57,897 nucleotides of DNA from IMG/VR virus record IMGVR_UViG_3300007004_000001, positions 1 to 57,897 of that record. One strand, given 5' to 3'. Source of the DNA: a virus. Its lineage: Duplodnaviria > Caudoviricetes. The notes under the pieces are model-generated. The model made no database searches. It was given only the letters and a program-made list of their open reading frames with translations, and was not told the DNA's origin. Below are positions 8,141 to 57,897 of this stretch, piece by piece. Position 1 is the first letter of the stretch. Each line of letters starts with the position of its first letter. Made by a program: the position numbers and the translations under genes.

Positions 8141-8340
8141 GTGGCTACGTTGTCCACCTCGCCTCGATGGTCGCCGTGCAGCCGCTGCGCGACGGCAAGC
8201 GCCTCGGGCTCACCGGCGATGCGCTGTGGCTCGAGCCGGACGCGCTCGTGCGGGTCGTGACGACGGCGGAACAGTTGCGGGCCGGGAAGCTCGAGCGTGG
8301 ATCGGGCGGCGAGGTCGACCCGCTGCAAGGAGCTGCGTGA
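8137..8340 (+). CDS. Hypothetical protein
   Basis: GTGA coupling. Confidence 0.45.
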   Translation: MSGYVVHLASMVAVQPLRDGKRLGLTGDALWLEPDALVRVVTTAEQLRAGKLERGSGGEVDPLQGAA

Positions 8341-8657: not shown

Positions 8658-9316
8658 GCGGACTCGATCTCGTCCGCCTGTCGGACGAACTCATCGCCGA
8701 CCGCCGCTGGACGTCGTGCTACGGCGACGGCACCATCCCGTCGCGGATGCGTTGGCTGCGCGCCGAGTGCGCAGCGTCTTTGCCGCCCGACCTCGTGTTC
8801 AGCGACCTCTTCCGCTCGCCGGCGAGCTCGCTCGAGGCCGTCGCGCGCGGACGTGGCGCGCTTCCGCCTGGGTATAGCTGCCACAACTTCGGAGGCGCCG
8901 TCGACCTCGACGTTGACGCCACGATGCGGCGCCTCGGCTACACCAAGAAGCGCCTCGATGAGTACATGGCCGCCGCCGGCTGGTACTGCCACCGCAGCGA
9001 CCACAAGCGTGGGAGCGAGGACTGGCATTGGAATTACCTCCCGTCGCCCCCGAGCGGGCGCCTCTCCTCCGACGAGGCAGAGCGCCACCTCGTCGATCTG
9101 TACGAGGCGCAGTGGTCGGCGCTCCGCAGCGATCTCCACGCCGAGCAGACCGCGCTCGCGGCCCTCGGGCTCTACCGCGGCGCGATCGACGGCATCGTCG
9201 GCAAGCAGACGCGGTCCGCGCGGGCGGCGTTCTCGTCGGCGTGGCTCACCCGCCCGACCGCCGACTACTACCGCGTGTTGTGGCTAGCCGCGCAGGCGAA
9301 GCGCTACGAGGAGTAG
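8654..9316 (+). CDS. Endolysin: M15-family Zn peptidase with a C-terminal peptidoglycan-binding domain
   Basis: SCHNFGGAVD (SxHxxGxAxD) and EDWH motifs, then LGLYRGAIDGIVGKQTRSA. Confidence 0.85.
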   Translation: MSGLDLVRLSDELIADRRWTSCYGDGTIPSRMRWLRAECAASLPPDLVFSDLFRSPASSLEAVARGRGALPPGYSCHNFGGAVDLDVDATMRRLGYTKKRLDEYMAAAGWYCHRSDHKRGSEDWHWNYLPSPPSGRLSSDEAERHLVDLYEAQWSALRSDLHAEQTALAALGLYRGAIDGIVGKQTRSARAAFSSAWLTRPTADYYRVLWLAAQAKRYEE

Positions 9317-9605
9317 CCATTCGTCGCCGCGCGATCGTCCAGAGCGAGTCGCCGCGCCAGTACGCGACGAGCTCCTCCGGGTCGATCCAGTAGATGCCCG
9401 CGACACCCTGTCGCTGCTCAAGCGTTGCGACCGGGGCGCGCTGCACCGGCACGCCCTCGCGGAGCAGGCGATCGAGTAGGTGGTACGTGGACCGCTCAGT
9501 GAGGCCTACGATCTTCTGCAGCCGACGCGCGGTCATCGGGCGGTCGTACAGCGCGCGTATCGCGGCGAGGTTGCTGTCGCGGCGGACGACGCGGCGGCGC
9601 TTCAC
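9246..9605 (-). CDS. Winged-HTH DNA-binding protein
   Basis: PMTARRLQKIVGLTERSTYHLLDRL..GVPV pattern; GTG coupled to the upstream stop. Confidence 0.6.
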   Translation of the reverse strand: MKRRRVVRRDSNLAAIRALYDRPMTARRLQKIVGLTERSTYHLLDRLLREGVPVQRAPVATLEQRQGVAGIYWIDPEELVAYWRGDSLWTIARRRMATPRSASPARLATTRGSSRRSGG

Positions 9606-9781
9606 GGATCGAGCCCCAGACGGCGCCGGATCCACTGGGTGAGCAGCAGGCCGGGGCTCTCGAGGTCGCGCGCCGCCTCCAACTGGGCGCGCTCGGCGTC
9701 GGTGCAGCGAAACGTGATCCGCTGGCCGGCCACGTCGATCATGCGGCGCGGACGGCCGAGCTTGCGGGGCGGGGCGGTCAC
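9602..9781 (-). CDS. Ribbon-helix-helix (MobC/CopG-like) protein, 59 aa, not in the ORF track
   Basis: MTAPPRKLGRPRRMIDVAGQRITFRCTDAERAQLEAARDLESPGLLLTQWIRRRLGLDP; coupled at both ends. Confidence 0.6.
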   Translation of the reverse strand: MTAPPRKLGRPRRMIDVAGQRITFRCTDAERAQLEAARDLESPGLLLTQWIRRRLGLDP

Positions 9782-10029
9782 TCGTCCTCGTCGGAGCAGG
9801 CCTCGGCGAGTAGGTAGACGTCAGAGTGGCGCGATTTGTAGACTTGCCCGTCTACGTCACGCCAGCGAGTACCGTCGCCGGTACCGTCGCACGGCACGAT
9901 CGTGTGCCCGCAGCCGGTGCGCGCGACCAACTCTCGAATGGTTCGCGACGGCTCGGACACCAAGGGTCCGCGACGAGGGTGAGACTGGACGAGGACGTAG
10001 CTAACTCGGGTGAGGTTGCGCTCGGTCAT
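9778..10029 (-). CDS. Hypothetical protein
   Basis: SD GGAG; follows structured element A. Confidence 0.55.
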   Translation of the reverse strand: MTERNLTRVSYVLVQSHPRRGPLVSEPSRTIRELVARTGCGHTIVPCDGTGDGTRWRDVDGQVYKSRHSDVYLLAEACSDEDE

Positions 10030-10055
10030 GGCATCTCCGGTTGGGTTCAGGTTGT

Positions 10056-10107
10056 GAGCTTGCCCGCTCGGCCCCGCGTGGCATCGCGGAGCCTGGCGAG
10101 TCGGCTC
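10056..10107 (-). ncRNA. Structured intergenic RNA element A
   Basis: GAGC-CGA-CUCGC-CA-GGCUCCGCG-loop-CGCGGGGCC-GA-GCGGG-CAA-GCUC; same fold as element B. Confidence 0.55.
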
Positions 10108-10110
10108 GGA

Positions 10111-10359
10111 TCAGCCCTGGCCGGCGGCGATCGCGCGGGCGCAGGCGGCCCAGGCAGCCTCCTCGGTCATCGCGGCGAGCCGCGTGCGCTGCTCCTCCGT
10201 GAGGTCGTCGTAGTCGTGCTCCACGTCGCCGACGTCCTCGCCTAGGGCAATCCTACACAGGACGAACTGCGCGGTGTCGTCGTGCTCGCGGGCCTCCTGG
10301 AGGAGAGCGTGGATCTGCGCCTCGGTGACGAGCGGGATGGGATAGGTCTCGGTGGTCAT
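10111..10359 (-). CDS. Hypothetical protein
   Basis: ATG at 10359 with SD AGGGGAG, downstream of promoter P1. Confidence 0.6.
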   Translation of the reverse strand: MTTETYPIPLVTEAQIHALLQEAREHDDTAQFVLCRIALGEDVGDVEHDYDDLTEEQRTRLAAMTEEAAWAACARAIAAGQG

Positions 10360-10414
10360 GGTCGGTCTCCCCTGTGCTGCGGTTGCGGCCAGCTCCGTCG
10401 CCGACCGTGAAACC

Positions 10415-10470
10415 AGTATGTCTATTCGTCGGACGAAAGTCAACGGGTAGATTTCGGGTCCGTGTCGATT
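10415..10470 (-). promoter_or_regulatory. Sigma70-type promoter P1 with palindromic operator and upstream box
   Basis: TTGACT-17-CATACT. The spacer holds TTCGTC-C-GACGAA; AATCGACA lies upstream. Confidence 0.75.
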
Positions 10471-10742
10471 TCGGCGGCGTCGATCGCGTCCTCGAGTTCG
10501 CGCCGCGCCGAGTCAGCGCGACGCGACGCGACATCGTAGTCGAGCGCCAGCGGGCAGCGGCCGCCCACGGTGCGGATGCCGTCGCCGCACTCCCGGCAGC
10601 TACACGCATCGGCACGCTCCGCGGCGTGGCTGACGGACTCAGCGGCGGCGCGGACCGCATCGCACAGGGCGACGAGGCCATGCAGGCCACGGCTGGCGGC
10701 CTGCTCACGGACTGAGGCGATCTGGTGCTGGGCGAGGTACAT
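10440..10742 (-). CDS. Hypothetical protein (CxCxxC)
   Basis: SD AGGAG; follows structured element B. Confidence 0.6.
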   Translation of the reverse strand: MYLAQHQIASVREQAASRGLHGLVALCDAVRAAAESVSHAAERADACSCRECGDGIRTVGGRCPLALDYDVASRRADSARRELEDAIDAAEIDTDPKSTR

Positions 10743-10775
10743 GGTCTCTCCTGTGTGTGCGCTGGTGTGCGCTGG

Positions 10776-10834
10776 TGAGGTTGCCCGGTCGAGGTCGCGA
10801 GCGGCGTGCTCGCGGCCCCGGCCAGGTCGCCTCA
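10776..10834 (-). ncRNA. Structured intergenic RNA element B
   Basis: UGAGG-CGA-CCUGG-CC-GGGGCCGCGAGC-loop-GCUCGCGACCUC-GA-CCGGG-CAA-CCUCA. Confidence 0.55.
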
Positions 10835-10969
10835 GGCCTGGATGACCGCCTCGCAGCAGGTGCAGACCCAGTATGTCGGCATCGTGATGCGGCGCTCGTG
10901 GGCACAGGCGGCCTGGCGCTGGCGGAGGGTGAGCTTCTTCGCGGCGGGCTTCTTGTTCGTCGTCGTCAT
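10832..10969 (-). CDS. 45-aa basic Zn-ribbon-like peptide, probably leaderless; not in the ORF track
   Basis: MTTTNKKPAAKKLTLRQRQAACAHERRITMPTYWVCTCCEAVIQA; ATG is 6 nt after the -10 box. Confidence 0.6.
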   Translation of the reverse strand: MTTTNKKPAAKKLTLRQRQAACAHERRITMPTYWVCTCCEAVIQA

Positions 10970-10975
10970 GTACCC

Positions 10976-11047
10976 AATCTAGAGTTTCGTCGGGCGAAAG
11001 TCAACTGGGGATCGACAGGGGATGTCGATTCTCGCAACCCATCGACA
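10976..11047 (-). promoter_or_regulatory. Sigma70-type promoter P2 with the same operator and upstream boxes
   Basis: TTGACT-17-TAGATT. The spacer holds TTCGCC-C-GACGAA; ATCGACA/TGTCGAT boxes at 11011, 11023 and 11041. Confidence 0.75.
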
Positions 11048-11257
11048 CTACTCGGCTCTGCCCGTCGGCCGGAACCGCTCCGGCGCGATGTGGACGTCGT
11101 CGGCGCGCCCCGGGATCCACACCACGAGCTCAGCGCCGGTGTCTCTGATGACCTCCGCGGCGCAACCGGCGATCTCGTCCCAGATGTCGCGTTGCCCCGT
11201 CTCGCTGTTGTACGCGGGCCGGATCTCGCCGCGCTGGCCGACTCGGCTGATGCTCAC
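11048..11257 (-). CDS. Hypothetical protein
   Basis: Coupled in the leftward string. Confidence 0.5.
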   Translation of the reverse strand: MSISRVGQRGEIRPAYNSETGQRDIWDEIAGCAAEVIRDTGAELVVWIPGRADDVHIAPERFRPTGRAE

Positions 11258-11469
11258 GGCGCGACCTCCCAGTCCGTGGCGAGGTAGTCGTCGCGGTCGA
11301 AGACGCTATCGCCGGCGTGGCTGTGGAGGTTGTCGAGGCCCTCGCCGTAGTCCGTTTTCCATGACGCCGACTCGTCGCGGAGCAGGAACCATGTGCCGCT
11401 ACACGGTCGCTTCGGATCTGGCTTGCGCCGCATCGGCTTGCCCGTCGCGAGGGCTTCGAGGAAGGTCAT
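11254..11469 (-). CDS. Small phage protein (MTFLEAL...D.LATDWEV pattern, DUF2829-like)
   Basis: Recognisable N- and C-terminal motifs. Confidence 0.5.
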   Translation of the reverse strand: MTFLEALATGKPMRRKPDPKRPCSGTWFLLRDESASWKTDYGEGLDNLHSHAGDSVFDRDDYLATDWEVAP

Positions 11470-11936
11470 AGCGTCACGCCTCGCTCCGCCGCCCACTCGG
11501 CGAGCGGTACCGGCTCTGGACCAGGTGCACCGTCCGCCCAGCGCCACCAGACGCCTAGGCGCTTGCCGAGCGCGACGATCGCGACGGCCTCGGCGTGGCC
11601 GTCCGCTCCGTCGTCGCCAGCGACTCGCCAGATCTCCATGTCGAGGTCGACTAGCCAGCCAGCGCAGTAGACACCCTCGCTCCAGTCGGACATGCGCTCG
11701 CGCAGGTCGTCGATCTGCCGCTCGCGCTCCGCCTTCCTGCTCGCCCGCACCTCGGCGATCAGGCGGCGGACGGTGTCGAGGCAGGCGAGGCGGCCATATT
11801 CGGCGGCATCGTCGGCGTAGGAGACGAACGGCCCGCGTTGCGGCGGACCAGAACGGTTTCTCTCTTGCCGGTCCGCCGCCCGCTCCAGCTCCGCCAGTTC
11901 CTCGTCGGTGAGCGGGGTCATGGCTTGGTCACTCAA
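11466..11936 (-). CDS. Hypothetical protein
   Basis: Coupled ORF; start may be 11921. Confidence 0.55.
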   Translation of the reverse strand: MSDQAMTPLTDEELAELERAADRQERNRSGPPQRGPFVSYADDAAEYGRLACLDTVRRLIAEVRASRKAERERQIDDLRERMSDWSEGVYCAGWLVDLDMEIWRVAGDDGADGHAEAVAIVALGKRLGVWWRWADGAPGPEPVPLAEWAAERGVTL

Positions 11937-12201
11937 GGTCGGAAGCCCTCTCTGGGTGCGCGATCAGCTCGCCGATCGACGCCCACGCCTCCAGCCACAG
12001 ACAGTAGCGGCAGGCGTAGATGCGCATGGGTTGCTCTCCGGACTGGCGTGGCTCGCCGCAGCAGTGGCACACGCAACAGCGCTCGGCCTGCGCGAGGCTC
12101 GACCATTCCGGCGAGCCCATGTCGCTCCGAACGCAAAAGCACGACCCGCACGCGTGCGCTCTGACCACGCCGCTCGGGTCGGTGAGGGGCATGGGGTTCA
12201 T
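11929..12201 (-). CDS. Cys-rich hypothetical protein
   Basis: ATG at 12201; several CxxC pairs. Confidence 0.5.
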   Translation of the reverse strand: MNPMPLTDPSGVVRAHACGSCFCVRSDMGSPEWSSLAQAERCCVCHCCGEPRQSGEQPMRIYACRYCLWLEAWASIGELIAHPERASDLE

Positions 12202-12476
12202 AGCTCGTCCTCTCCCATCAGCTGGGCACGGGTCAGCATCCGCTCGGTGGCGCCGAAAACCGGTGCCATCCTGATCGTGACGATGTAGAAGGTCTGGCGA
12301 TCGCGGCTCACGAGTAGGCCTTGCGGGTCGCTCTGAAATCGCCGGTACAGCGCGAGCGATGCGACCAACGCGGCGCTCTGGAACCCATCGGCCTGCACAA
12401 CAGCGTCCGGGTGCTCGATGTCCGCCTCGTTCATCTGCCGCTCCTCGTCGAGCCACACTTCCCACTGCTCGGTCAT
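12198..12476 (-). CDS. Hypothetical protein
   Basis: SD GGAGG; coupled. Confidence 0.55.
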   Translation of the reverse strand: MTEQWEVWLDEERQMNEADIEHPDAVVQADGFQSAALVASLALYRRFQSDPQGLLVSRDRQTFYIVTIRMAPVFGATERMLTRAQLMGEDEL

Positions 12477-12877
12477 GGCAGATCCTCCTGCTCCAGGTCG
12501 CGCAGGTCGTCCTCAGTGATGCCGCTTTGGCGCGGTGCCTCCAGCGCTGCGATCCGCCGCTCGCACTCGGCGAGGCGGGCGAACAGGCCGGGGCCGAGCG
12601 AGGCGGAGTTATCCAGCGTGGCGAGTACAGGCAGCGGCACCGCGCCGCTCGTCCGCTCGCAGTTGCACGCCGCGTCCTCGGTGGCCAGCGAGTCGCAGTC
12701 CGCGTCATGGCGAACGAGGCGCGCGTACAGCACCTCGTCGTCGACGCTGAACACCCGCGACGGGTCACGGTGAGGCGTCGCGTTCACGACGATCTGACCG
12801 AGGCGCAGGTCCGGGCAGTCCATCCAGTAGGCGCGCAGGCGGGCCAGGATGCGGTCGATGCGGGCGGGGTCTCTCAT
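12473..12877 (-). CDS. DUF1040/YihD-like N-terminal protein
   Basis: MRDPARIDRILARLRAYWMDCPDLRLGQIV...DDE pattern. Confidence 0.6.
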   Translation of the reverse strand: MRDPARIDRILARLRAYWMDCPDLRLGQIVVNATPHRDPSRVFSVDDEVLYARLVRHDADCDSLATEDAACNCERTSGAVPLPVLATLDNSASLGPGLFARLAECERRIAALEAPRQSGITEDDLRDLEQEDLP

Positions 12878-13092
12878 GGGTCCGTCCATGACTGCTCTGG
12901 CTTGCAGGTCGGACAGAGGCACGCCCCTGCGAAGGGGCACTCCTTAACCGGTCCCATGCGCGCCCATGTCTGGCACTCGCACTCGCCGACAACCCGGCCC
13001 GGTCCATTGTCGCAGTTCACGTGATGGTCGCGGATCGCTTTTGCGATCTCAGATGCACGACGCGCCACCTCGTCACGTTCCTGTTGCTCCAT
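12874..13092 (-). CDS. Cys-rich hypothetical protein
   Basis: First gene after attP. Confidence 0.45.
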   Translation of the reverse strand: MEQQERDEVARRASEIAKAIRDHHVNCDNGPGRVVGECECQTWARMGPVKECPFAGACLCPTCKPEQSWTDP

Positions 13093-13318
13093 TTGTTACT
13101 CCAGCTGCGGTTTATCCACACTCAGCGCGGCTCGCTCCGGAACGCCAAGCTGTTGCGATCGTTGGCCAACCCCTGAACATTCATGCGGCTGGCATAGGTC
13201 TGCAAAACCACCATTCGTCAGTTCAATCCTGACCGGCACCTCTCCGACGGAGAATCGCCCCTCCGACCGTGGTCACGAACCGGCCGCCGCGCACCTGAAA
13301 AACTCCATTATTGCTCCG
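13082..13318 (+). other. attP: tRNA-Cys(GCA) 3'-half core (13197-13241) with candidate arm-type sites
   Basis: GGT-CTGCAAA-ACC anticodon arm, GTCAG-TTCAATC-CTGAC T-arm, CGGCACC acceptor strand and U discriminator; no 5' half. Tandem TGTTGCTCCA/TGTTACTCCA and AAAAACTCCA/TATTGCTCCG flank the core. Directly downstream of int. Confidence 0.85.
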
Positions 13319-14387
13319 ACTGATCAGGGTTCTTCTCGACGAGCAATCGCATGGCCTTGGACGCCTCGGCTTTCTCGTCGCGCCCGATCAGGCTGTAGTG
13401 GGCTGTCATCGCCGAGGTCGCGTGCCCGGTGATCGCCCGCAGCACTTCGCCGGTCGTGACCTGGCGCGCGAGGTTGTTGAACGTCCGGCGAAGCCCGTGG
13501 GTCGTGACGCGCGGGACGCCGGCGGCCTTGCACGCCTTGTCCAGCACGGCGCGCAGCGGCGTTCCACGGTGCGCGGTTCCGCGGCGCGTGGGAAACACCA
13601 GACCACTCGCACGGGGCCGGAGCAGGGCAAGGACGGGCGGCGGCAGCGGGACGGTGCGCCAGCTCTTGCGCGTCTTCGGCGTCACCTCGGCGCCTCGCCA
13701 GTTGCCGCGCCGGACGCTGATCTCCATCGTTCGCGTGTTGAAGTCCTCCCAAAAGAGTCCGCTCGCCTCGCCCCAGCGCAGCCCCGTGTAGCCGATGAGC
13801 ATCACGATCGCGCGCCACTGCTTCGGGATCGCCGCTAGCAAGTCGCGCAGCTGCTCGGCGTTGAGCAGGTTCGGGTTCGCCTCGGTGTAGCCGACCGGCG
13901 TCGGGGCCGTGACGCGCTCGCAGAAGTCCCGATCTGTCAGGCCGTCCGCCTTCGCATCCTTCGCGATCACACGCAGCAGGCGCAGCATGTTCAGCACCGT
14001 GTTGTCCGCGAGGCCGGACGCGATGCGCTCGGCGATGAACCGGCGCACGTCGCTTGGCTGGATCGCGTCGACGAAGTGATCACCGAGAGCGGGCAGGATG
14101 TGCTGGTCGAGGTTGTTGGCGTACTTGTACACGACGCTTGGCTTGAGGCGGCTTTCCCGCTCGGCGATCCAGCCACTCACGTATCGTCTCAGTCGGACGC
14201 GGGCCTTCTTCGGACCGACGTCGCGCAACTCGGCGTGGAGCTCGGCGCGCCGCGCCTCCGCCGCCGCCTTCGTCCCCGTCACCGTCTCCATCGCTCCGAT
14301 CTTCGCCCCGGTCTTCGGGTCCCGCGCCTGGACGCGGATCCTCCACTTGCTCGGACCGAGCTTCTCCAGACCGCGCACGAACGCCAT
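13308..14387 (-). CDS. int: Tyrosine recombinase/integrase
   Basis: YTGLRWGEA (R), TPKT (K), HGLRR (HxxR) and ITGH...MTAHY (H,Y). N-terminal arm-binding and core-binding regions. ATG at 14387 after GGAG. Confidence 0.95.
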   Translation of the reverse strand: MAFVRGLEKLGPSKWRIRVQARDPKTGAKIGAMETVTGTKAAAEARRAELHAELRDVGPKKARVRLRRYVSGWIAERESRLKPSVVYKYANNLDQHILPALGDHFVDAIQPSDVRRFIAERIASGLADNTVLNMLRLLRVIAKDAKADGLTDRDFCERVTAPTPVGYTEANPNLLNAEQLRDLLAAIPKQWRAIVMLIGYTGLRWGEASGLFWEDFNTRTMEISVRRGNWRGAEVTPKTRKSWRTVPLPPPVLALLRPRASGLVFPTRRGTAHRGTPLRAVLDKACKAAGVPRVTTHGLRRTFNNLARQVTTGEVLRAITGHATSAMTAHYSLIGRDEKAEASKAMRLLVEKNPDQSEQ

Positions 14388-14574
14388 GCCGTTTCTCCAG
14401 TCGGGCGCGCACGAACGCATCAAGCGTCGCGCGCAGGAACACGTAGGACCCTCGCGGGCCGACACCGTCGGGGACCAGCTCGCCGCGGTAGACGCAGTGC
14501 CGGATCGCGCCGGGCGTGTGAAAGCCGAGGTAGGTCATTGCCTCGGCGGTGTTGAGGTACGGCCGTTCGCTCAT
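14080..14574 (-). CDS. xis: Excisionase-like HTH protein (the first ~64 aa; the tail overlaps int out of frame)
   Basis: YLNTAEAMTYLG...AIRHCVYRGEL...YVFLRATLDAFV; immediately upstream of int. Confidence 0.8.
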   Translation of the reverse strand: MSERPYLNTAEAMTYLGFHTPGAIRHCVYRGELVPDGVGPRGSYVFLRATLDAFVRARLEKRHGVRARSGEARSEQVEDPRPGAGPEDRGEDRSDGDGDGDEGGGGGAARRAPRRVARRRSEEGPRPTETIREWLDRRAGKPPQAKRRVQVRQQPRPAHPARSR

Positions 14575-14583
14575 CTCCGCCCC
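14570..14583. repeat. 14-bp direct repeat, downstream boundary of the type IV-B module
   Basis: CTCATCTCCGCCCC, identical to 18423-18436. Confidence 0.85.
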
Positions 14584-15302
14584 TCAATCGCCGCCATCTC
14601 GGCGCGGTAGTATCGGCGCTCCCATTCGGCGCGACCGTGTCCTCGCCCACGCTTCCCGCCGAGCGTCGACACCCGCAGGTCGTTGCGGTCAAGCCGCCCC
14701 TCCATCGTGCAGGCGTACGCGGGATGAACGGGCAGGTCGTTCCCGGCGAGGTACGCGAAGACGTGCTCGGTCTTCCACCACCCGATCGGCCGGCACGTGT
14801 TACGCGAGACGAGGCTGTTCACCCGCATCGTCATCCGTCGCGTCGAACTCTCCTCGGCGCGGACACCCGACGCGTAGCGGTGGCCGAACTCGCGGGACGC
14901 TTCCTCGAAGGCCTCCTGCGCTCCGTCGTGACCGAGATGCCGATTCCAGTCGTCGTCGGGCAGCACGGCAGGTCGCTCGGCGTATGCGCACGGGTAGCGC
15001 GCGAGGAACGCGTCGCGCACCAGCGCGCAGTCGGGGTTCTCGATCGAGCCGGCCGGGAACCACACCACTGGCAGATCCGCTCCGATCATCTCGGTGGCGA
15101 GGTGCGCCACGACGACGCTGTCCTTGCCCCACGACACGCTCACGTAGCCCGCACCGCCAGCAAAGAACTCGTCGAGCGCGCGGCGCGCATCGTCGATCAG
15201 CCGGCGCATCGCTGCCGTCGCGTAGATCTGCCGATCGAACCCCTCCAGCATCGACCAGTGCCGGAGATCCCCCGGCGTGTGCCGTCGCGACGCGATCAGC
15301 AC
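14571..15302 (-). CDS. cysH: CysH-like PAPS-reductase-family protein (type IV-B accessory)
   Basis: PP-loop SVSWGKDS, GVRAEESSTR and RPIGWWKTEHVFAYL..NDLPVHPAY. GTG overlaps the csf3 stop. Confidence 0.85.
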   Translation of the reverse strand: MLIASRRHTPGDLRHWSMLEGFDRQIYATAAMRRLIDDARRALDEFFAGGAGYVSVSWGKDSVVVAHLATEMIGADLPVVWFPAGSIENPDCALVRDAFLARYPCAYAERPAVLPDDDWNRHLGHDGAQEAFEEASREFGHRYASGVRAEESSTRRMTMRVNSLVSRNTCRPIGWWKTEHVFAYLAGNDLPVHPAYACTMEGRLDRNDLRVSTLGGKRGRGHGRAEWERRYYRAEMAAIEGRR

Positions 15303-16075
15303 TACGGCTCCACGCACGCCGCGAGCCGCGACGCGTGGTAGTAGGGCGGCCGCAGCCCGCCGTACCCCGGTGCGCCGTCGACGGCACCGAGCGGAATACG
15401 TCGCCGCAGTCGCCCCTCCTCGTCGACCACGGAGCGGTCCACGTCGCACTGCTCGACGCGCCACTCGCGCACCGTCCCCGATCCGATGTTGCGCTTCTTC
15501 CCGATCGCCGGCACGTGCGCCGTGAGCAGCGCCTGGATCGCGTCCGGATCGCCGTGCGCGTACCAGACCACCTCACGCGCCAGCACCGTCGGGATCGACA
15601 GGTCGTAGGCCTTCGTCGCGCCCGCGCCGGTGTTGAGCGTCTTGTCCTTGGCGTACCGCACCATCTTCGCCGCCTCCGGCTTCTTCCGCACCTCGAGCAC
15701 GCCTCGTGCTGCCCAGACGGAATCGTCCGCCGCCGACGCGCACCAGCCCCAAAGCTGCGGGTGCGTCCCGTCGCGCTGGCCCGGCGCCGCACCGTCCCGA
15801 TCGCGGCGTGCCTTTCGCAGCAACCTCTCATCGCTCACCTCGCCGACGCGATCGCACCACCACGTGGAGAGCGGCATGCGCAGATCGGTCGGCCACTCTG
15901 CCGTCTCGATCGGCGGGATGGTCAGCCGCGTGCGCATGTCCAGGTCGTGGAACGCCGCGTAGGCGATCGGCCCGTCGATGTGCAGCAGGTCGCCGAGGTA
16001 CGCGATCGGCTCGTCCATCACCGCGATGATGCGCATCGGGACGTAGGCGCCGCGCGATCGCATCGTCCAGGTCAC
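15302..16075 (-). CDS. csf3: Type IV CRISPR Csf3 (Cas5-like RAMP)
   Basis: LHIDGPIAYA, VVWYAHGDPDAIQALL, G-rich loop IGKKRNIGSGTVREWRVE and terminal RPPYY. GTG coupled to the csf2 stop. Confidence 0.85.
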   Translation of the reverse strand: MTWTMRSRGAYVPMRIIAVMDEPIAYLGDLLHIDGPIAYAAFHDLDMRTRLTIPPIETAEWPTDLRMPLSTWWCDRVGEVSDERLLRKARRDRDGAAPGQRDGTHPQLWGWCASAADDSVWAARGVLEVRKKPEAAKMVRYAKDKTLNTGAGATKAYDLSIPTVLAREVVWYAHGDPDAIQALLTAHVPAIGKKRNIGSGTVREWRVEQCDVDRSVVDEEGRLRRRIPLGAVDGAPGYGGLRPPYYHASRLAACVEP

Positions 16076-17055
16076 GCCACCGCCTCGCGGATTGCGGCGA
16101 GGATCTCCGACTTGCGCTCGCGCAGGTGCGCCACGTACTTCGCGCCACGGTCGCCGCCGACGCCGGACACCGCGAGCGCCTCGGTCGGCTCGTACTGCGG
16201 CGTCGTGACCCGCAGCGCACTGCGCAGCTCGACGGCGATCGCCCCGTAGCCGACGCTGTTCTTCGCGCCGATGTGCGTTGTCAGCTCGCCGTCGCGCTGC
16301 CCGCCAGCGGAGTAGTGGAACGCGCTGGCCAGCGCCGCCATCTCCAGATCGGTGATGTCGCCGAACCAGACCGTGCCCCAGAGCTTCGCCCCGGCCGCGA
16401 TGCACTGGTAGTCGTAGATCATCTGCGCGCTGTCACCGCGATCGCTCGGCGTCGACTCGGCGAGCGCCTTCTTCTTCTTGCCCTCGACCTTCGCGGTCGC
16501 CTCGCCGGACAGCAGGCGCACCCCGACGGCCTTGCTCGCCATGTCGTGCCGCGTCCCGAAGTCCTCGACGCGCAGCGCACCGGCCCGCAACTGGAGATGC
16601 GGCGAGTCACGCAGATCGTCGGGTAAGCGCCAGCTGTTCTCCTTGCAGATCAGGTGCAGATGCGAGACGCGGAGCTTACTCTCCGTCATCGCGTTGCCTG
16701 CCGAGTATCCGCACAGCGAGAGCGCCGGAAACAGCTGCTCGAGTTGCCTCGCCGCGCCGAGATCGATCGCCGCGCCGCTCTTGCTCAGATGCCCGCCGCT
16801 GAACAGCAGGTCGACCTCAGCCTTGCTCAGCGATCCGTCCTCGACGCCGAGCGCGTCTAGCGCGTAGCTCACCGCCGACGCGCGCAGCTTGTGCTTGACG
16901 CTGTTCCCCGAGATGAACGGAACGCGCCCGACGCTGCCGTCATCCAGCACCACCGGTTGCATCCTCAGCAGCTGGGTGTTCCCGCTCGTCCCCGCGCCAT
17001 GGAGGATCGGCTCCAACGCCGTCGCCCTGATCTCGATCTTGCCCGTGGTTCTCAT
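16072..17055 (-). CDS. csf2: Type IV CRISPR Csf2 (Cas7-like backbone RAMP)
   Basis: ALEPILHG, VPFISGNSVKHKLR, LLFSGG, FPALSLCG, QMIYDYQCIAAG and G-loop IGAKNSVGYG. Confidence 0.9.
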   Translation of the reverse strand: MRTTGKIEIRATALEPILHGAGTSGNTQLLRMQPVVLDDGSVGRVPFISGNSVKHKLRASAVSYALDALGVEDGSLSKAEVDLLFSGGHLSKSGAAIDLGAARQLEQLFPALSLCGYSAGNAMTESKLRVSHLHLICKENSWRLPDDLRDSPHLQLRAGALRVEDFGTRHDMASKAVGVRLLSGEATAKVEGKKKKALAESTPSDRGDSAQMIYDYQCIAAGAKLWGTVWFGDITDLEMAALASAFHYSAGGQRDGELTTHIGAKNSVGYGAIAVELRSALRVTTPQYEPTEALAVSGVGGDRGAKYVAHLRERKSEILAAIREAVA

Positions 17056-17338
17056 GGTTCTTCCTTTTCAGTTCCAGGTGGTGCTCGCAGAGCGTGTTCG
17101 TCGCGACGCGCGGGTTGTTGCATCTCCGGCACAGGCCGGCGCTCCATCGCTTCCGTTGGTACTTCTTCACCGTCGCTGTTCGCTGCGCGATGCACTCTTC
17201 GCAGCGTCGGCGCCCCGGCTTCGGCGGCTGGTCACACGACAGGTTGCCGATACATCCGCCGGCATCCGCCTTGACGCGCTTCGCCGCGGCGTATCGCGCG
17301 TTACCTGCCGCGACCAGGTGCTTCTTCCGCCGCTTCAC
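16940..17338 (-). CDS. Basic Zn-finger repeat protein inside the csf operon
   Basis: Two G-x-C..C..P...CxxC/H units; resembles 29132-29530. Confidence 0.6.
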   Translation of the reverse strand: MKRRKKHLVAAGNARYAAAKRVKADAGGCIGNLSCDQPPKPGRRRCEECIAQRTATVKKYQRKRWSAGLCRRCNNPRVATNTLCEHHLELKRKNHENHGQDRDQGDGVGADPPWRGDEREHPAAEDATGGAG

Positions 17339-17703
17339 CCGCGCGCCTCGTACTCGGCGCGCTGCTCGGCGCGGCGTCCTTGCGCTATCGCGACGACGTA
17401 GAGCGCCTGCGTCTCGCAGAGGTGACGGAACCGCTCGAAGTCACCGCTCGCCGTCAACGTCTCGGCCAGCGAAGAGATCTCCTTGCTGGTGCTCTCCGCT
17501 GTCGCGTCGATCTGGAGCTTGCGCCCCATCACCGCGACGAGCTGGGCGAACGAGTCCGCCGTCGCTGCCGCGGTTTCGAGCGCGCTTCGGGCCCGCGTCC
17601 ACCAGTCGATCGGGCGGATCTTGTCCGTCGACGCCGACCGCATCATCGCCAGCACGAGCTGGATCCCGAGCTCCATCCTGCTCTCGTCCGTCTCTTCCCC
17701 CAT
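17335..17703 (-). CDS. Cas11-like small alpha-helical subunit
   Basis: 122 aa, all-helical appearance, located between csf1 and csf2 as in type IV-B loci; SD GGAGG. Confidence 0.65.
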   Translation of the reverse strand: MGEETDESRMELGIQLVLAMMRSASTDKIRPIDWWTRARSALETAAATADSFAQLVAVMGRKLQIDATAESTSKEISSLAETLTASGDFERFRHLCETQALYVVAIAQGRRAEQRAEYEARG

Positions 17704-18427
17704 CGGTCACCTCCGTCTCGGTCTTGCGCGCCAGGAACAGCGCGAGGTTGAACAGCGGGCTGCCTCGGTCGCGGCGCAGTGCCGCGTCGCCGGTCCGCCA
17801 CACGTCGAGTCCGATCTTGATCAGCCGCCCAGGGTTCGGCCCGTCTACGATGTCCTGCTTGCTGAACCCGGCGTCCATCAGCGTGCCGATCGCTCCTCGC
17901 ACGCGCCGGTACTCCCCCGGCGTCGCGCGAACCGTCGTGCGCTCGTGCCGCACCGACCACACCGCGCTGCCGAGGTTGACCTCCGCAAACGGCAGAGTGT
18001 GGATCTGCCCGCCCTCGGCGATCGACATAAGCCACCGTCCGCCCGGTGGGTTCGCCAGCACCTCGTCGAACGTGCGCGGGCCGGCCTTGCTGCTGTGCAA
18101 GTGGATGCGCGGCCCGAGGTTCGGCGCCGACGGGTGGTTGTCCGGCCACGCGGACGGAGGCTGCGCAGCCCAGATGATCGACCATAGGCGCAGCGTGTCC
18201 GGCGGCCTACCGGTCATCGCCCACGCGCACGCGACGCAGAGCAGCGGCGAGGACGGCATGCTAGCCTGGTCCTGGTCGGTGAACGTGTCGGAGATGACCG
18301 CCGCTTGCGAGCAGCACGGGCCGGCGATCGTGTCGGCGCACCAGTAGCAGCGGCCCTCGCCATCGATGATCGGGCGGCGCGGATCGGGACGGCCGGCTGC
18401 GGCCCAGAGGATTGGCGGGGCTCTCAT
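17441..18427 (-). CDS. csf1: Type IV CRISPR Csf1 (Cas8-like large subunit)
   Basis: CYWC...ISDTFTD...PSSPLLCVAC Zn-finger, then LANPP..W..IA..GQIH. The last ~87 aa overlap the cas11-like gene. Confidence 0.8.
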   Translation of the reverse strand: MRAPPILWAAAGRPDPRRPIIDGEGRCYWCADTIAGPCCSQAAVISDTFTDQDQASMPSSPLLCVACAWAMTGRPPDTLRLWSIIWAAQPPSAWPDNHPSAPNLGPRIHLHSSKAGPRTFDEVLANPPGGRWLMSIAEGGQIHTLPFAEVNLGSAVWSVRHERTTVRATPGEYRRVRGAIGTLMDAGFSKQDIVDGPNPGRLIKIGLDVWRTGDAALRRDRGSPLFNLALFLARKTETEVTDGGRDGREQDGARDPARAGDDAVGVDGQDPPDRLVDAGPKRARNRGSDGGLVRPARRGDGAQAPDRRDSGEHQQGDLFAGRDVDGER

Positions 18428-18436
18428 CTCCGCCCC
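18423..18436. repeat. 14-bp direct repeat, upstream boundary of the type IV-B module
   Basis: Identical to 14570-14583. Confidence 0.85.
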
Positions 18437-18729
18437 GCCACCTCGTCGCGTAGAGCGGCGAGCTGCTGGCGCAGATCGTCGACGTCGGCACGTAGGCGAG
18501 CCACTTCGGCATCGGTCGTTCCTGCGACGGCCAGGAGTTCGTCGGGCCGAATGGAGAGCGCGGCGGCGACGGCACCGATGCGCTCGGCGCTGAGCGGCGG
18601 CCGCTCGCCTCGCTCAACGTCGCTCAGGTACGTGATCGAGACGCCGATTCGTTCTGCGACGGCGCGGAGCGTGAATCCGCGGCCGACGCGCGCTTTGCGG
18701 AGAGCCTCTCCGAAGCGGTTCGCGCTCAC
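18424..18729 (-). CDS. XRE-family HTH regulator with a C-terminal coiled coil
   Basis: FGEALRKARVGRGFTLRAVAERIGVSITYLSDVERG. Confidence 0.85.
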   Translation of the reverse strand: MSANRFGEALRKARVGRGFTLRAVAERIGVSITYLSDVERGERPPLSAERIGAVAAALSIRPDELLAVAGTTDAEVARLRADVDDLRQQLAALRDEVAGRR

Positions 18730-18962
18730 GGCACCCCCTCCGGCCGGTACGCCGCGGCGAGGTTGCGGGCGATGCTGGCCCCGCGAGCGGCGCGGATGAT
18801 TAGGTAGGGCCGCTCCACGAGATCGTCGCCGGCCGCATGGTTGATGCGGCGCGCACAGGTCGCGCAGTACGGCATCCTGGTCTGCGTGTGGATCCACGCG
18901 GCGTCGTGTCGGATCTTGATCGAGCACGCTCGGCGAGAACAGGTCTGATCCGTGCTGCTCAC
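18726..18962 (-). CDS. Small Cys-containing hypothetical protein
   Basis: YCATCARRIN; coupled. Confidence 0.5.
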   Translation of the reverse strand: MSSTDQTCSRRACSIKIRHDAAWIHTQTRMPYCATCARRINHAAGDDLVERPYLIIRAARGASIARNLAAAYRPEGVP

Positions 18963-19113
18963 GTCCCCTCCAGGGCGAACGCGGCACGCACCGCATCCAC
19001 AAGCTTGCGCTGTTGTTCCGGATCGATGCGATCGCTGCGCATGTAGTCGCTCCATGCAGCGTTCGCCGAGTCGACCTCGCACCCCTCGCGGTCGCACCTG
19101 GGGCAGCGGCCGC

Positions 19114-46870: not shown

Positions 46871-46914
46871 GCCGCACTGCGCTGTTGACGAGCGGGAACC
46901 CCGAGGAGGGTCCC

Positions 46915-48147
46915 GTGAGCTACACCGCAACTGATCACGACGCAGTACTCAAGGACTGGTACACCGACGAGCGCATCCAGGATCTCTCCGCTTACCACAA
47001 CCCGTTCTTCGGGATGGTCAAGAAGGAGATGCAGGGCGGGCGCAAGTACGTCCAGCCCATCGACATCCAGCTCCCAGGCGGCGGGTCGGCCTCGTACGCC
47101 AAGTCGCGCACGAACCAGACCAAGTCGCTGTGGGAGGCGTTCGAGCTGACCCGCGTCACCCAGTACCAGCTGGCGACGGTCGGCAACCACGTCATCCGCG
47201 CGACGCAGAACGATCGCGCGGCGTTCCTCCCCGCGTTCAAGGAGTTCGACCGCGCGTTCCGTGCGTGCGGTGACAAGATCGCGCGGCAGATGTTCCGCAC
47301 GACCGGCGGCAGCATCGGCCGCATCTCGACGTCGACCACGCTGGCCGGCGCCGACATCGTCCTGACCGATCCGGCCGACGCGTTCAACTTCTACGTCGGC
47401 CAGCTGCTCACCTCGGACACCGTCGATGGCGGCGGCACCGAGACGGACTCGGGCGACACGCTGGCGGTCACCGCCGTCGACGTCGAGAACGGCATCATCA
47501 CGGTCGCCGAGAACATCGACACCGTCTCGGGTATCGCTCACGGCGACTACCTGTTCACCGACGGTGACTACGGCGCGTGCATGGCGGGCCTCGCCTCGTG
47601 GCTGCCGGTCGACCGCTCGGTGCTGAGCACCCCGTTCTACGGCGTCACCCGCTCGACGCACGAGGACAAGCTCGGCGGCATCTACCTCGACGCGAGCGCG
47701 ATGCAGATCGACGAGGCGATCATCAAGCTCGTCGCGAAGGTCCACAAGCACGGTGGCATGGTCGACCGAGTGCTCGGCAACCCCGAGACGCTCAGCGACC
47801 TCCAGCTGCTCTGGAACGGCAAGCGCCAGATGACCGACGTCGAGGCGCGGGTCTCGCCGGTGGTCGGCTACCCGGGCTTCAAGGTCAACGTCCCGGGCGG
47901 CGGCGCGGTCGAGTTCTACTCGGACCGCAACTGCCCGAGCAATCGCCTCTACGCGCTCCAGATGGACACGTGGACGCTCTACCACGCCGGCGAGTGCCCT
48001 GGCTTCCTGCTCAAGGGCCTCGGCTCGGCGTACAGCGGCATCCTGCTGCCCGTCGCGGACGCCGACGACTGGGAGTCCCGCATCGGCGGGTACTTCAACC
48101 TCGGCTGTTCGGCGCCCGGCTTCAACGGCGTCGCGAAGCTGGCCTGA
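46915..48147 (+). CDS. Major capsid protein
   Basis: 410 aa after the scaffold; strong SD GAGGAGG and highly biased codon usage. Confidence 0.82.
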   Translation: MSYTATDHDAVLKDWYTDERIQDLSAYHNPFFGMVKKEMQGGRKYVQPIDIQLPGGGSASYAKSRTNQTKSLWEAFELTRVTQYQLATVGNHVIRATQNDRAAFLPAFKEFDRAFRACGDKIARQMFRTTGGSIGRISTSTTLAGADIVLTDPADAFNFYVGQLLTSDTVDGGGTETDSGDTLAVTAVDVENGIITVAENIDTVSGIAHGDYLFTDGDYGACMAGLASWLPVDRSVLSTPFYGVTRSTHEDKLGGIYLDASAMQIDEAIIKLVAKVHKHGGMVDRVLGNPETLSDLQLLWNGKRQMTDVEARVSPVVGYPGFKVNVPGGGAVEFYSDRNCPSNRLYALQMDTWTLYHAGECPGFLLKGLGSAYSGILLPVADADDWESRIGGYFNLGCSAPGFNGVAKLA

Positions 48148-48155
48148 GCCGCGCT

Positions 48156-48193
48156 GGAGGTGGGGAGTGGCGCATAGCGCTACTCCCTCCTCC
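48156..48193 (+). promoter_or_regulatory. Strong hairpin after the capsid gene (stabiliser, processing site or attenuator)
   Basis: GGAGG..GGGAGTGGCGC-ATA-GCGCTACTCCC.CCTCC; no U-tract. Confidence 0.55.
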
Positions 48194-57445: not shown

Positions 57446-57897
57446 TGCCATCTGCGGCGGACATCCTCGCGCAGTACGACCAGGAGCAGGCCTTCGCGCC
57501 GGCGGAGACGGTCAACGTCCGCACGCCCGAAGGTGACACTCTCGCGATCCCGGCGAGTGCGGTCGACTACGCGCGAGAGCAAGGATTCACCGTCGAGGAC
57601 TCCGCGATGGAGGCCGAGCGCATCGCCCGCGAGGTCCGCGAGGAGCGCTACAGCGGCGCAGGCAACACGATCACCGCTGGCATGCTCGGCCTCGCCCGCG
57701 GTGCCACGCTGGGTCTTAGCGATGTCGTGCTCACCGCCGGCGACGACGCAATGGCCGAGGAGCTACGTGGTCTCAAGGAGGCCAACCCCACGCTATCGAC
57801 CGTCACCGAGGTCGCCGGCGCCGTACTGCCAGCGTTCGCGTCGGGGGGCGCGTCCACGGCATCGCGGATCCTCGGCGCTACGCCGGCCGGCATGGCG
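57445..57897 (+). CDS. N-terminal part of the large ejection protein (continues at position 124)
   Basis: GTG at 57445 overlaps the upstream TAG, with SD GGAGG; open frame to the window end and in frame with 118-3150. Confidence 0.8.
   Translation, partial: MPSAADILAQYDQEQAFAPAETVNVRTPEGDTLAIPASAVDYAREQGFTVEDSAMEAERIAREVREERYSGAGNTITAGMLGLARGATLGLSDVVLTAGDDAMAEELRGLKEANPTLSTVTEVAGAVLPAFASGGASTASRILGATPAGMA
57775..57897 (+). repeat. 123-bp terminal direct repeat, right copy
   Basis: Identical to 1-123. Confidence 0.95.

Follow-up and report, generated by a model that had tools for sequence, protein, structure and literature searches.

The virus record IMGVR_UViG_3300007004_000001 (57,897 bp, GC 68%), analysed in its entire length and called the window below, belongs to a temperate, high-GC soil phage and carries two intergenic hairpin elements, A (10056–10107, minus strand, 52 nt) and B (10777–10833, minus strand, 57 nt), in a leftward operon of small open reading frames (ORFs). 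Read along the minus strand, the order is a promoter-like site P1, a 45-aa ORF, element B, a 100-aa ORF, a second promoter-like site P2, an 82-aa ORF, element A, and ORFs of 83, 59 and 98 aa. P1 (TTGACT-17-TAGATT, 10976–11004, minus) and P2 (TTGACT-17-CATACT, 10415–10443, minus, with a -35 hexamer that overlaps the stop codon of the 100-aa ORF) are exactly the two sigma-70-like sites found in positions 9000–13400, where 0.3 would be expected. A third match in the whole genome (26830–26858, minus as well) heads the long leftward arm, and all three share the -35 context (C)AGTTGACTT(T)CGCCCG / CCGTTGACTTTCGTCCG. The spacers of P1 and P2 contain a 13-bp palindrome, TTCG(T/C)C-C-GACGAA, which is perfect in P2 (TTCGTC-C-GACGAA, 10425–10437) and has one mismatch in P1 (TTCGCCCGACGAA, 10986–10998); no further copy with up to two mismatches was found in the whole genome. 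The palindrome is probably the operator of a local regulator, and the 59-aa ribbon-helix-helix-like ORF and the 98-aa ORF at the operon end are candidates for that role, given weak Pfam hints. Just upstream of the -35 hexamer of P1, a heptamer is present three times on the minus strand (TGTCGAT at 11047–11041, ATCGACA at 11029–11023 and TGTCGAT at 11017–11011), and these copies may be further binding sites.

The 45-aa ORF (10832–10969, minus), first gene after P1, ends at B and encodes a basic, Cys/His-rich protein with a Lys/Arg-rich N-terminus and a C-x-H ... C-x-C-C pattern (GC content at third codon positions, 0.96), for which no homologue or family was found in PHROGs or Pfam. Since its ATG (10969) lies 7 nt past the -10 hexamer of P1, its mRNA is probably leaderless. 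The 100-aa ORF (10440–10742, minus) is situated between B and P2. The acidic 82-aa ORF (10111–10359, minus), first gene after P2, ends 3 nt before A and is an ORFan, with a self-match only among 5.8 billion protein clusters. Downstream of A lies the 83-aa ORF (9778–10029, minus), followed by the ORFs of 59 and 98 aa to approximately position 9310. Each element closes the first cistron behind a promoter with a palindromic operator. No promoter-like site was seen between B and the start of the 100-aa ORF, or between A and the ORFs of 83, 59 and 98 aa; as these genes have Shine-Dalgarno (SD) sequences and lack promoters, at least some transcription has to pass the hairpins.

On the minus strand, element A reads GAGC-CGA-CUCGC-CA-GGCUCCGCG-AUGCCA-CGCGGGGCC-GA-GCGGG-CAA-GCUC, with stems GAGC/GCUC and CUCGC/GCGGG, internal loops CGA/CAA and CA/GA, and a 9-bp hairpin closed by the loop AUGCCA. 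Element B reads GAGG-CGA-CCUGG-C(C)-hairpin-(G)A-CCGGG-CAA-CCUC, with stems GAGG/CCUC and CCUGG/CCGGG, the loop CGA/CAA, a small second loop and a 12-bp GC hairpin containing one C/A mismatch; its stem 1 extends to 5 bp if the pair U10834/A10776 is counted (span 10834–10776). Over the three coaxial stems, 18 bp are formed in A and 21 bp in B. Folding with RNAfold (minimum free energy [MFE] and centroid structures, z-scores against 200 shuffles) returned this fold as both MFE and centroid structure for A (-34.1 kcal/mol, z -3.9) and for B (-40.3 kcal/mol, z -4.6), and in neither case was any of the 200 shuffles as good. The three-stem fold with internal loops, proposed for both elements by a sequence-only reading of this DNA, was thus recovered; the second internal loop of B, drawn there as C(A/C)/GA, is present, but in the MFE structure it is 1x1 (C/A) and not 2x2. 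When stability was scanned on both strands in 60-nt segments with 5-nt steps (mean -20.2, standard deviation 4.8 kcal/mol), the segment with B (-44.7) was the most stable in the genome and that with A (-34.8) the 18th among the non-overlapping segments listed.

The placement of the elements was also as the sequence-only reading had it, each following a stop codon and preceding an A/C-rich linker and an SD sequence. Element A begins 3 nt past the UGA stop (10113–10111) of the 82-aa ORF, and stem 1 of B overlaps the last two letters of the UGA stop (10834–10832) of the 45-aa ORF. The 3' strands of stems 2 and 1 of B make up a linear motif, CGACCGGGCAACCUCAC (10775–10791, minus), the counterpart of which in A is CGAGCGGGCAAGCUCAC (10054–10070, minus). 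From the motif of B, an A/C-rich, U-free linker with the SD sequence AGGAGAG (10743–10774, minus) leads to the ATG of the 100-aa ORF, and from that of A, an A/C-rich linker with GGAGA (10030–10053, minus) leads to the ATG of the 83-aa ORF. The flanks directly 3' of the hairpins are ACAACCUGAACCC in A and ACCAGCGCACACC in B, with no U-run in either. Short direct repeats flank the hairpins (CGACC in B, CCGAGC in A). The two elements are about 80% alike, with starts 726 nt apart, and the 10 nt preceding each of them are alike as well (CCAGG-S-CUGA, where S is G or C, stop codon included), which fits an old local duplication.

A strict structural-motif script found A and B only in the window, plus one unrelated plus-strand match in coding sequence. 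A covariance model built from both elements (R1) and run without filters on the whole window gave 87 bits for B, 81 bits for A and, beyond their own reverse strands, 17 bits for the next match; A and B are the only two copies in the 57.9-kb genome. Contigs from a public run of 2024 (X2) match positions 9956–10427 (three differences) and 10714–10888 (no differences), covering both A and B, and the run also holds more diverged pieces elsewhere in 9300–12900, so that a close relative of the phage exists in another sample; within A and B these contigs showed no added variation.

Comparison of A with B (alignment A2, 18 shared base pairs) revealed ten invariant pairs, three changed on one side (all to or from a wobble pair), four changed on both sides and one broken in B. 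The structure accounted for 97% of cells as paired, as opposed to 28–47% when the partner strand was slid by 1–3 columns. All 12 differing letters within the 18 pairs fall in stems, and the loop residues CGA, CAA and GA as well as the 3' flank CUCAC are identical in both elements. Such a pattern is suggestive of covariation, although with two sequences it does not amount to proof.

Viral contigs were searched with a pattern in which CGAC on the 5' side was followed, after a gap, by the 3' strand CGA-S-CGGGCAA-S-CTCAC; it made no demand on the stop codon, hairpin, SD sequence or ATG. Two contigs matched, G001 (62.5 kb, estimated to be 80% complete) and G002 (55 kb, 98%). No protein similarity was detected among the window, G001 and G002 by BLASTP at E<=1e-3, and neither contig contained a match to the portal protein or Csf2 of the window. 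In G001, the motif is part of a cassette, stop-CCGACCG-[hairpin]-CCGACCGG(G/A)C(A/G)ACC-UCACAACC-GAGCGAGGAGAACGAUCAUG, placed between consecutive small genes on the same strand. Eight copies have the hairpin (three exact and five variant) and two lack it; they are distributed over an array of small ORFs, ten or more in number, close to one end of the contig (L001 7212–11713, equivalent to approximately 56.5–61.0 kb of G001, minus strand), with cassettes of about 95 nt and an identical ribosome-binding site, GAGCGAGGAGAACGAUCAUG, across them. In the hairpin-less junctions (L001 ~11390–11435 and ~8270–8304) the stop codon is followed directly by one repeat and the motif. An AT-richer region with TACGTTGTGCC repeats is located upstream of the array, no promoter-like site was found within the array itself, and the ORFs beside it carried no Pfam domains, those of recombinases included. 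Because eight efficient terminators in series would silence the array, we take the G001 hairpins to be read-through elements.

The hairpins of G001 are of the 18-bp class, with 94% of cells paired and three pairs changed on both sides, and their sequences show no relationship to those of A and B. They lack a counterpart of the outer stem 1 and do not preserve the three-stem fold with its CGA/CAA loops; what the window and G001 have in common is limited to a hairpin between CGACC repeats and to the 3' linear motif, of which the 17-mer CGACCGGGCAACCUCAC (19 nt with the next CA) is identical in copies of the G001 cassette. G002 contains one reduced copy that keeps GAGC/GCUC, a CAA bulge and CCCG/CGGG; it received only 13 bits from R1 and could be a chance match. 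Defined as stop – CGACC – hairpin – CGA-S-CGGGCAA-S-CUCAC – linker – SD – ATG in sense orientation, the cassette family has as members A, B, eight copies in G001 and the reduced one in G002. All copies in the window and G001 point in the direction of the genes beside them and are followed by an SD sequence. The family is real but rare in the data reached.

Pairing kept through four double and three single changes with identical loops, a local stability among the highest in the genome and a related element in other phage contigs make it reasonable to regard A and B as a selected structured element and not as a product of chance. To this extent the earlier proposal of a selected RNA motif stands, whereas the particular three-stem fold on which it was founded is not the form found in G001.

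Other searches for relatives, among them those which the sequence-only reading had suggested as checks, added few records: relatives were very few altogether, and the comparison with Rfam matched no family. Rfam 15 gave no match at gathering thresholds on the whole window, and at E<=10 on positions 9950–11050 the best was MIR531, a plant microRNA-precursor family, on B with 34 bits against a gathering score of 70, which we consider a generic hairpin resemblance. Among cultured phages no relative was found by blastn of positions 9000–12000 or by tblastn of the capsid protein, and among viral contigs none was found through neighbouring proteins (the 100-aa ORF, the integrase and Csf2); the promoter/operator pattern had no match in viral contigs either. 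The 36-nt 3' half of B, searched by blastn at E<=10, returned ten records, all at E=5 and therefore at chance level, nine of them under coding annotation and one unannotated. A motif-only scan of viral contigs produced 59 loci, mostly conserved coding sequence of a few protein families; L014, L050/L063, L051, L029 and L021 looked intergenic, and as their upstream folds were close to those of shuffles (z -0.4 to +0.8; -1.6 for L029), they were not accepted as members. In bacterial and archaeal genome contigs the motif gave 85 stretches, of which only L153 was convincing, with the same three copies as L001; it lies on a 65-kb contig of a metagenome-assembled genome titled Pseudonocardia sp., which carries a phage of the G001 type. 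The remaining stretches were single chance-like matches, and L118 was a different perfect palindrome. At least 118 stretches came from a metagenome scan, and among the matches listed L185 alone was convincing, again with the three copies of L001. In the rest of the Pseudonocardia-labelled assembly, outside the phage contig, the motif was at control level and so is no repeat of the host in this assembly. When 151 genomes from the surrounding order were searched, R1 found nothing convincing, with one marginal partial match (E 0.006 per genome, model positions 13–53).

The location and anatomy of A and B favour a role in read-through processing, stability or attenuation. The interpretation which we prefer, and to which we give a probability of roughly one half, is that A and B are paralogous, read-through intercistronic elements that punctuate the mRNA of the leftward small-gene operon. 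It draws on the promoter–cistron–hairpin–cistron layout, the obligatory read-through, the lack of a U-tract, a helix length of about 20 bp broken by small internal loops, and the array in G001, where almost all junctions carry a copy. That RNA is the active form and that a nuclease or polymerase event produces 3' ends at the elements is our inference. The unit would consist of a stop codon, a GC-rich irregular stem-loop of 18–21 bp, the conserved 3' strand CGA-S-CGGGCAA-S-CUCAC, an unstructured A/C-rich linker, an SD sequence and an ATG. Transcripts would start at the operator-controlled P1 and P2; some of them would end or be cut at or just after the hairpin, and others would read through. 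Ending might occur by inefficient U-tract-less termination, and cutting by an RNase III-type enzyme in the long irregular helix or by an RNase E/J-type enzyme in the single-stranded linker. The hairpin would then shield the cistron next to the promoter (the 45-aa ORF behind P1, the 82-aa ORF behind P2) against 3' exonucleases, with a higher yield than that of the distal genes, and with the GC-rich flank locked in a helix the downstream ribosome-binding region would stay open.

Intercistronic stabiliser hairpins share this logic, and the RNase III signals of the early genes of phage T7 offer a close parallel, being irregular, paralogous intergenic hairpins of about 50–60 nt that are read through and leave a protective 3' hairpin on the upstream mRNA. 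An RNase III site requires about two helical turns, roughly 20 bp. The total helix of 18–23 bp with small internal loops fits the need of double-strand-specific RNases, and A and B have the anatomy of a T7-type site (about 20 bp, mostly paired, with internal loops, in a polycistronic transcript), cutting being in their case a prediction only. As in T7, the hairpins contain internal loops, measure about 50–60 nt and are intergenic and paralogous within a polycistronic operon; they differ in having no sequence similarity to the T7 signals, in number (two sites in the window) and in that their cleavage is predicted only.

The nearest known repeats in kind are the start-associated sequences and extended start-associated sequences (SAS/ESAS) of Cluster K mycobacteriophages, intergenic repeats with 11–19 SAS per genome (PMC3203893), the function of which was in 2025 still said to need experimental verification (PMC12699233). 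SAS/ESAS resemble A, B and the G001 cassettes in being intergenic repeats specific to actinophages, located in non-structural regions, sense-oriented and tied to translation starts, with an asymmetric conserved motif near the ribosome-binding site. Roughly every second site also has, directly upstream of this motif, an imperfect inverted repeat whose spacer varies. The architecture of SAS/ESAS is found in A, B and the G001 cassettes, and the latter, with hairpin, motif, identical ribosome-binding site, ATG and hairpin-less versions, closely match its logic; the likeness is one in kind and not of sequence homology. The 13-bp SAS consensus, GGGATAGGAGCCC (PMC3203893), had no match in the window at up to two mismatches. 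The copy number differs (two in the window against 11–19 SAS per Cluster K genome), the window motif lies 24–32 nt upstream of the ATG whereas SAS is at the SD sequence, and ESAS half-sites are conserved in sequence (17-bp consensus), suggesting protein binding, whereas the stems of A and B vary with compensation and their loops and 3' strand are conserved. A and B are rare, newly seen members among the known intergenic stem-loop repeats of phages. High-GC actinophages hold many short repeated intergenic signals of unexplained function, with SAS/ESAS as the best-described case, and the present locus is compact, with two promoters, two small ORFs and two paralogous hairpins that carry natural compensatory mutations, along with a sister family of 8–10 copies in another phage. 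If A and B set 3' ends or processing sites in the absence of a U-tract, this would bear on the punctuation of actinobacterial transcripts, and they could be used as portable insulator or stabiliser parts for high-GC hosts.

Several observations weigh against mRNA punctuation. The antisense strands fold about as well (reverse complement -31.1 against -32.6 kcal/mol for A, and -42.3 against -36.1 kcal/mol for B), so that folding energy alone cannot show the sense RNA to be the active form; neither folding energy nor G-U pairs gave a useful strand asymmetry, and a role at the RNA level is drawn from orientation and gene context only. No RNA run was among the sequencing runs listed with this DNA, and 3' and 5' ends are not visible. 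One fold with covarying stems comes from two paralogues in one genome and a weak miniature copy in G002. The sequence-only reading had held that stems covary while loops are conserved, and the identical loops and the four double and three single changes agree with it; one pair is broken, and in the shuffle control of A against B 35 of 500 shuffles reached the observed value, two sequences limiting such a test to approximately 1 in 16. The covariation in G001 derives from perhaps two lineages, with 16 of 500 shuffles reaching its score. A plain stabiliser hairpin needs no sequence conservation, yet the 3' strand is identical over 17–19 nt in phages lacking any shared protein, which points to either a sequence-specific partner or horizontal spread of the junction. 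Finally, with just two copies, each behind a promoter-proximal gene, the placement suits regulated terminators equally well.

It is possible, although doubtful, that A and B are such terminators, namely factor-independent, hairpin-only terminators of the actinobacterial kind, which would end immediate-early transcripts from P1 at B and from P2 at A, the downstream genes being expressed on relief of termination. The layout is comparable to PR-cro-tR1 and PL-N-tL1 of lambda, as each hairpin lies behind the first ORF of an operator-bearing promoter and starts at the stop codon or within 3 nt of it, which is the usual place of a terminator. Stem-loop terminators without a U-tract reportedly exist in the early region of phiC31 (Ingham et al. 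1995), and A and B resemble these as GC-rich hairpins that lack poly-U and are situated in the early or regulatory part of the genome of a temperate actinophage with high GC; they differ in that the genes downstream of A and B are without promoters, so any termination could be only partial. Both elements have the GC-rich hairpin of a canonical intrinsic terminator, and in neither is it followed by a U-rich tract of 7–9 nt; a terminator scan of positions 9000–13400 reported neither of them. The absence of the U-tract counts against this explanation, the more so as mycobacterial RNA polymerase is reported to need a U-tract at intrinsic terminators (mBio 2014, PMC3993855). Eight related hairpins in series would be silencing in the promoter-less G001 array, and the genes that follow A and B in the window lack promoters.

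Alternatively, the elements may act as DNA, either as palindromic insertions which duplicate a CGACC-type target or as attC-like recombination boundaries that spread between phages, any effect on RNA being secondary. Such a role would account for the direct repeats around the hairpins (CGACC in B, CCGAGC in A, CCGACCG in G001), for the two hairpin-less linkers in G001, which resemble empty sites, for the motif being present in three phage genomes without shared proteins, and for the equal folding of both strands; still, we judge it improbable. The hairpins of the window and G001 are unrelated and the shared part is the flanking motif, so there is no single mobile hairpin, and deletion between direct repeats would yield the same 'empty' sites. 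The window has two copies only and no empty site, and every copy runs in the sense direction of its neighbouring genes, with an SD sequence after the motif. With two stems separated by an unpaired spacer, a variable top and conserved bases outside the pairs, the architecture resembles the attC sites of integrons, which are likewise imperfect palindromes 3' of short promoter-less ORFs, keep structure over sequence, and invite comparison with the arrayed cassettes of G001. Unlike attC, A and B lack the R-box core (no RYYYAAC...GTTRRRY pair was found in either, with both strands read), the flanks are direct and not inverse repeats, the G001 unit includes the SD sequence and start codon, and no integron-type integrase or other recombinase domain occurs among the neighbours of the G001 array.

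A further idea, also given a low probability, is that 'CGACC – hairpin – CGACCGGGCAACCUCAC' is a portable gene-junction module that was moved or repeatedly recruited among unrelated high-GC actinophages and is read by a factor that recognises its sequence, for instance a nuclease of the host, a protein associated with the ribosome or a recombinase. The identical 19-nt 3' strand across protein-unrelated phages, the direct-repeat flanks and the hairpin-less junctions of G001 are compatible with it. If true, the module would represent a new class of cis-regulatory RNA for small-gene arrays of phages or an attC-like boundary that shuffles small ORFs.

Quite unlikely, in our estimation, are nut- or put-like cis antitermination signals, in which the hairpin and linear motif would modify the polymerase, possibly together with the basic 45-aa protein, to pass downstream stops. 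There is one element per promoter, promoter-proximal and directly after the first ORF, as nutR follows cro in lambda; lambda nutR/tR1 and HK022 put also combine a hairpin with a linear motif after the first early gene. The conserved unpaired residues and the linear motif beside a variable stem would suit an RNA bound by a protein or polymerase, and the Lys/Arg-rich N-terminus of the 45-aa ORF agrees with such a function. On the other hand, A and B have no boxA- or put-like similarity in Rfam, where even at E<=10 the only matches were chance ones to microRNA-precursor models, no obvious terminators are present downstream within the operon, the 45-aa protein is without homologue or family, and G001 has 8–10 copies in one array in which a single site per operon would do.

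With regard to the genome as a whole, a 123-nt direct repeat, 100% identical, is present at both ends of the record (1–123 and 57775–57897) and probably arose as an overlap in the assembly; the genome would then be circular or terminally redundant and measure about 57,774 bp, and the record probably represents it in full, in circularly assembled form. A high-GC actinobacterium is the probable host. The plus strand carries the structural genes from about 39 kb round to about 6 kb, and the long leftward arm on the minus strand spans from about 27 kb to 9.3 kb, including RecT (minus) and a helix-turn-helix protein (18424–19002, minus). In the same arm lies a type IV-B-like CRISPR-Cas module (14571–18427, minus), consisting of Csf1 (17441–18427), Cas11 (17335–17703), Csf2 (16072–17055), Csf3 (15302–16075) and a protein similar to phosphoadenosine phosphosulfate (PAPS) reductase (CysH-like, 14571–15464), all on the minus strand; it adjoins a tyrosine integrase (13308–14465, minus). 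No CRISPR-like array or regularly spaced repeats were among the direct-repeat families shown for the window, and no Cas6-type gene was seen in the module, beyond the ORFs of which no search for Cas6 was made.

The sequence-only reading had speculated that A and B are a source of small RNAs for this Csf complex; they might also serve the array-less complex as a recognition handle. The five module proteins, the lack of a repeat array among those families and the lengths of 52 and 57 nt might speak for such a role, since the purified type IV-B complex of Mycobacterium sp. JS623 contains heterogeneous RNA of about 55–60 nt, held extended in filaments of the Cas7-type Csf2, and the RNA recognised by Csf3 is given in that study as unknown (PMC7937560). 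We find this hardly credible: the agreement in size is a chance one between two figures, neither G001 nor G002 has a Csf2 match, the elements are about 4.5 kb from the csf genes with the integrase and about ten ORFs between, very stable duplexes (about -33 to -40 kcal/mol) are at odds with the extended RNA of Cas7-type filaments (PMC7937560), and no Cas6-type gene was seen in the module. The two copies are just about 80% alike and do not form the near-identical repeats of about 24–40 nt with spacers of about 30–40 nt typical of CRISPR. We see no link of A and B to the CRISPR-like module, and a tempting, unsupported connection with the guide-less type IV-B system of the same phage is thereby removed.

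Below the integrase, about 12 small ORFs run down to position 9310, ending opposite a VanY-type lysis gene, and PHROGs and Pfam gave no family assignment above threshold for them. Between the integrase stop codon and the first small ORF there is a non-coding stretch of lower GC content (12941–13307) that is likely to contain attP; if it does, the operon of small genes to which A and B belong would be located at one end of the prophage. A further hairpin of 17 bp, GC-rich and also without a U-tract, was observed at 48156–48193 on the plus strand, 8 nt past the stop codon of the putative major capsid gene (46885–48147); it is the second most stable 60-nt segment in the genome, which suggests that hairpins of this kind are positioned in this phage behind genes with probably high expression.

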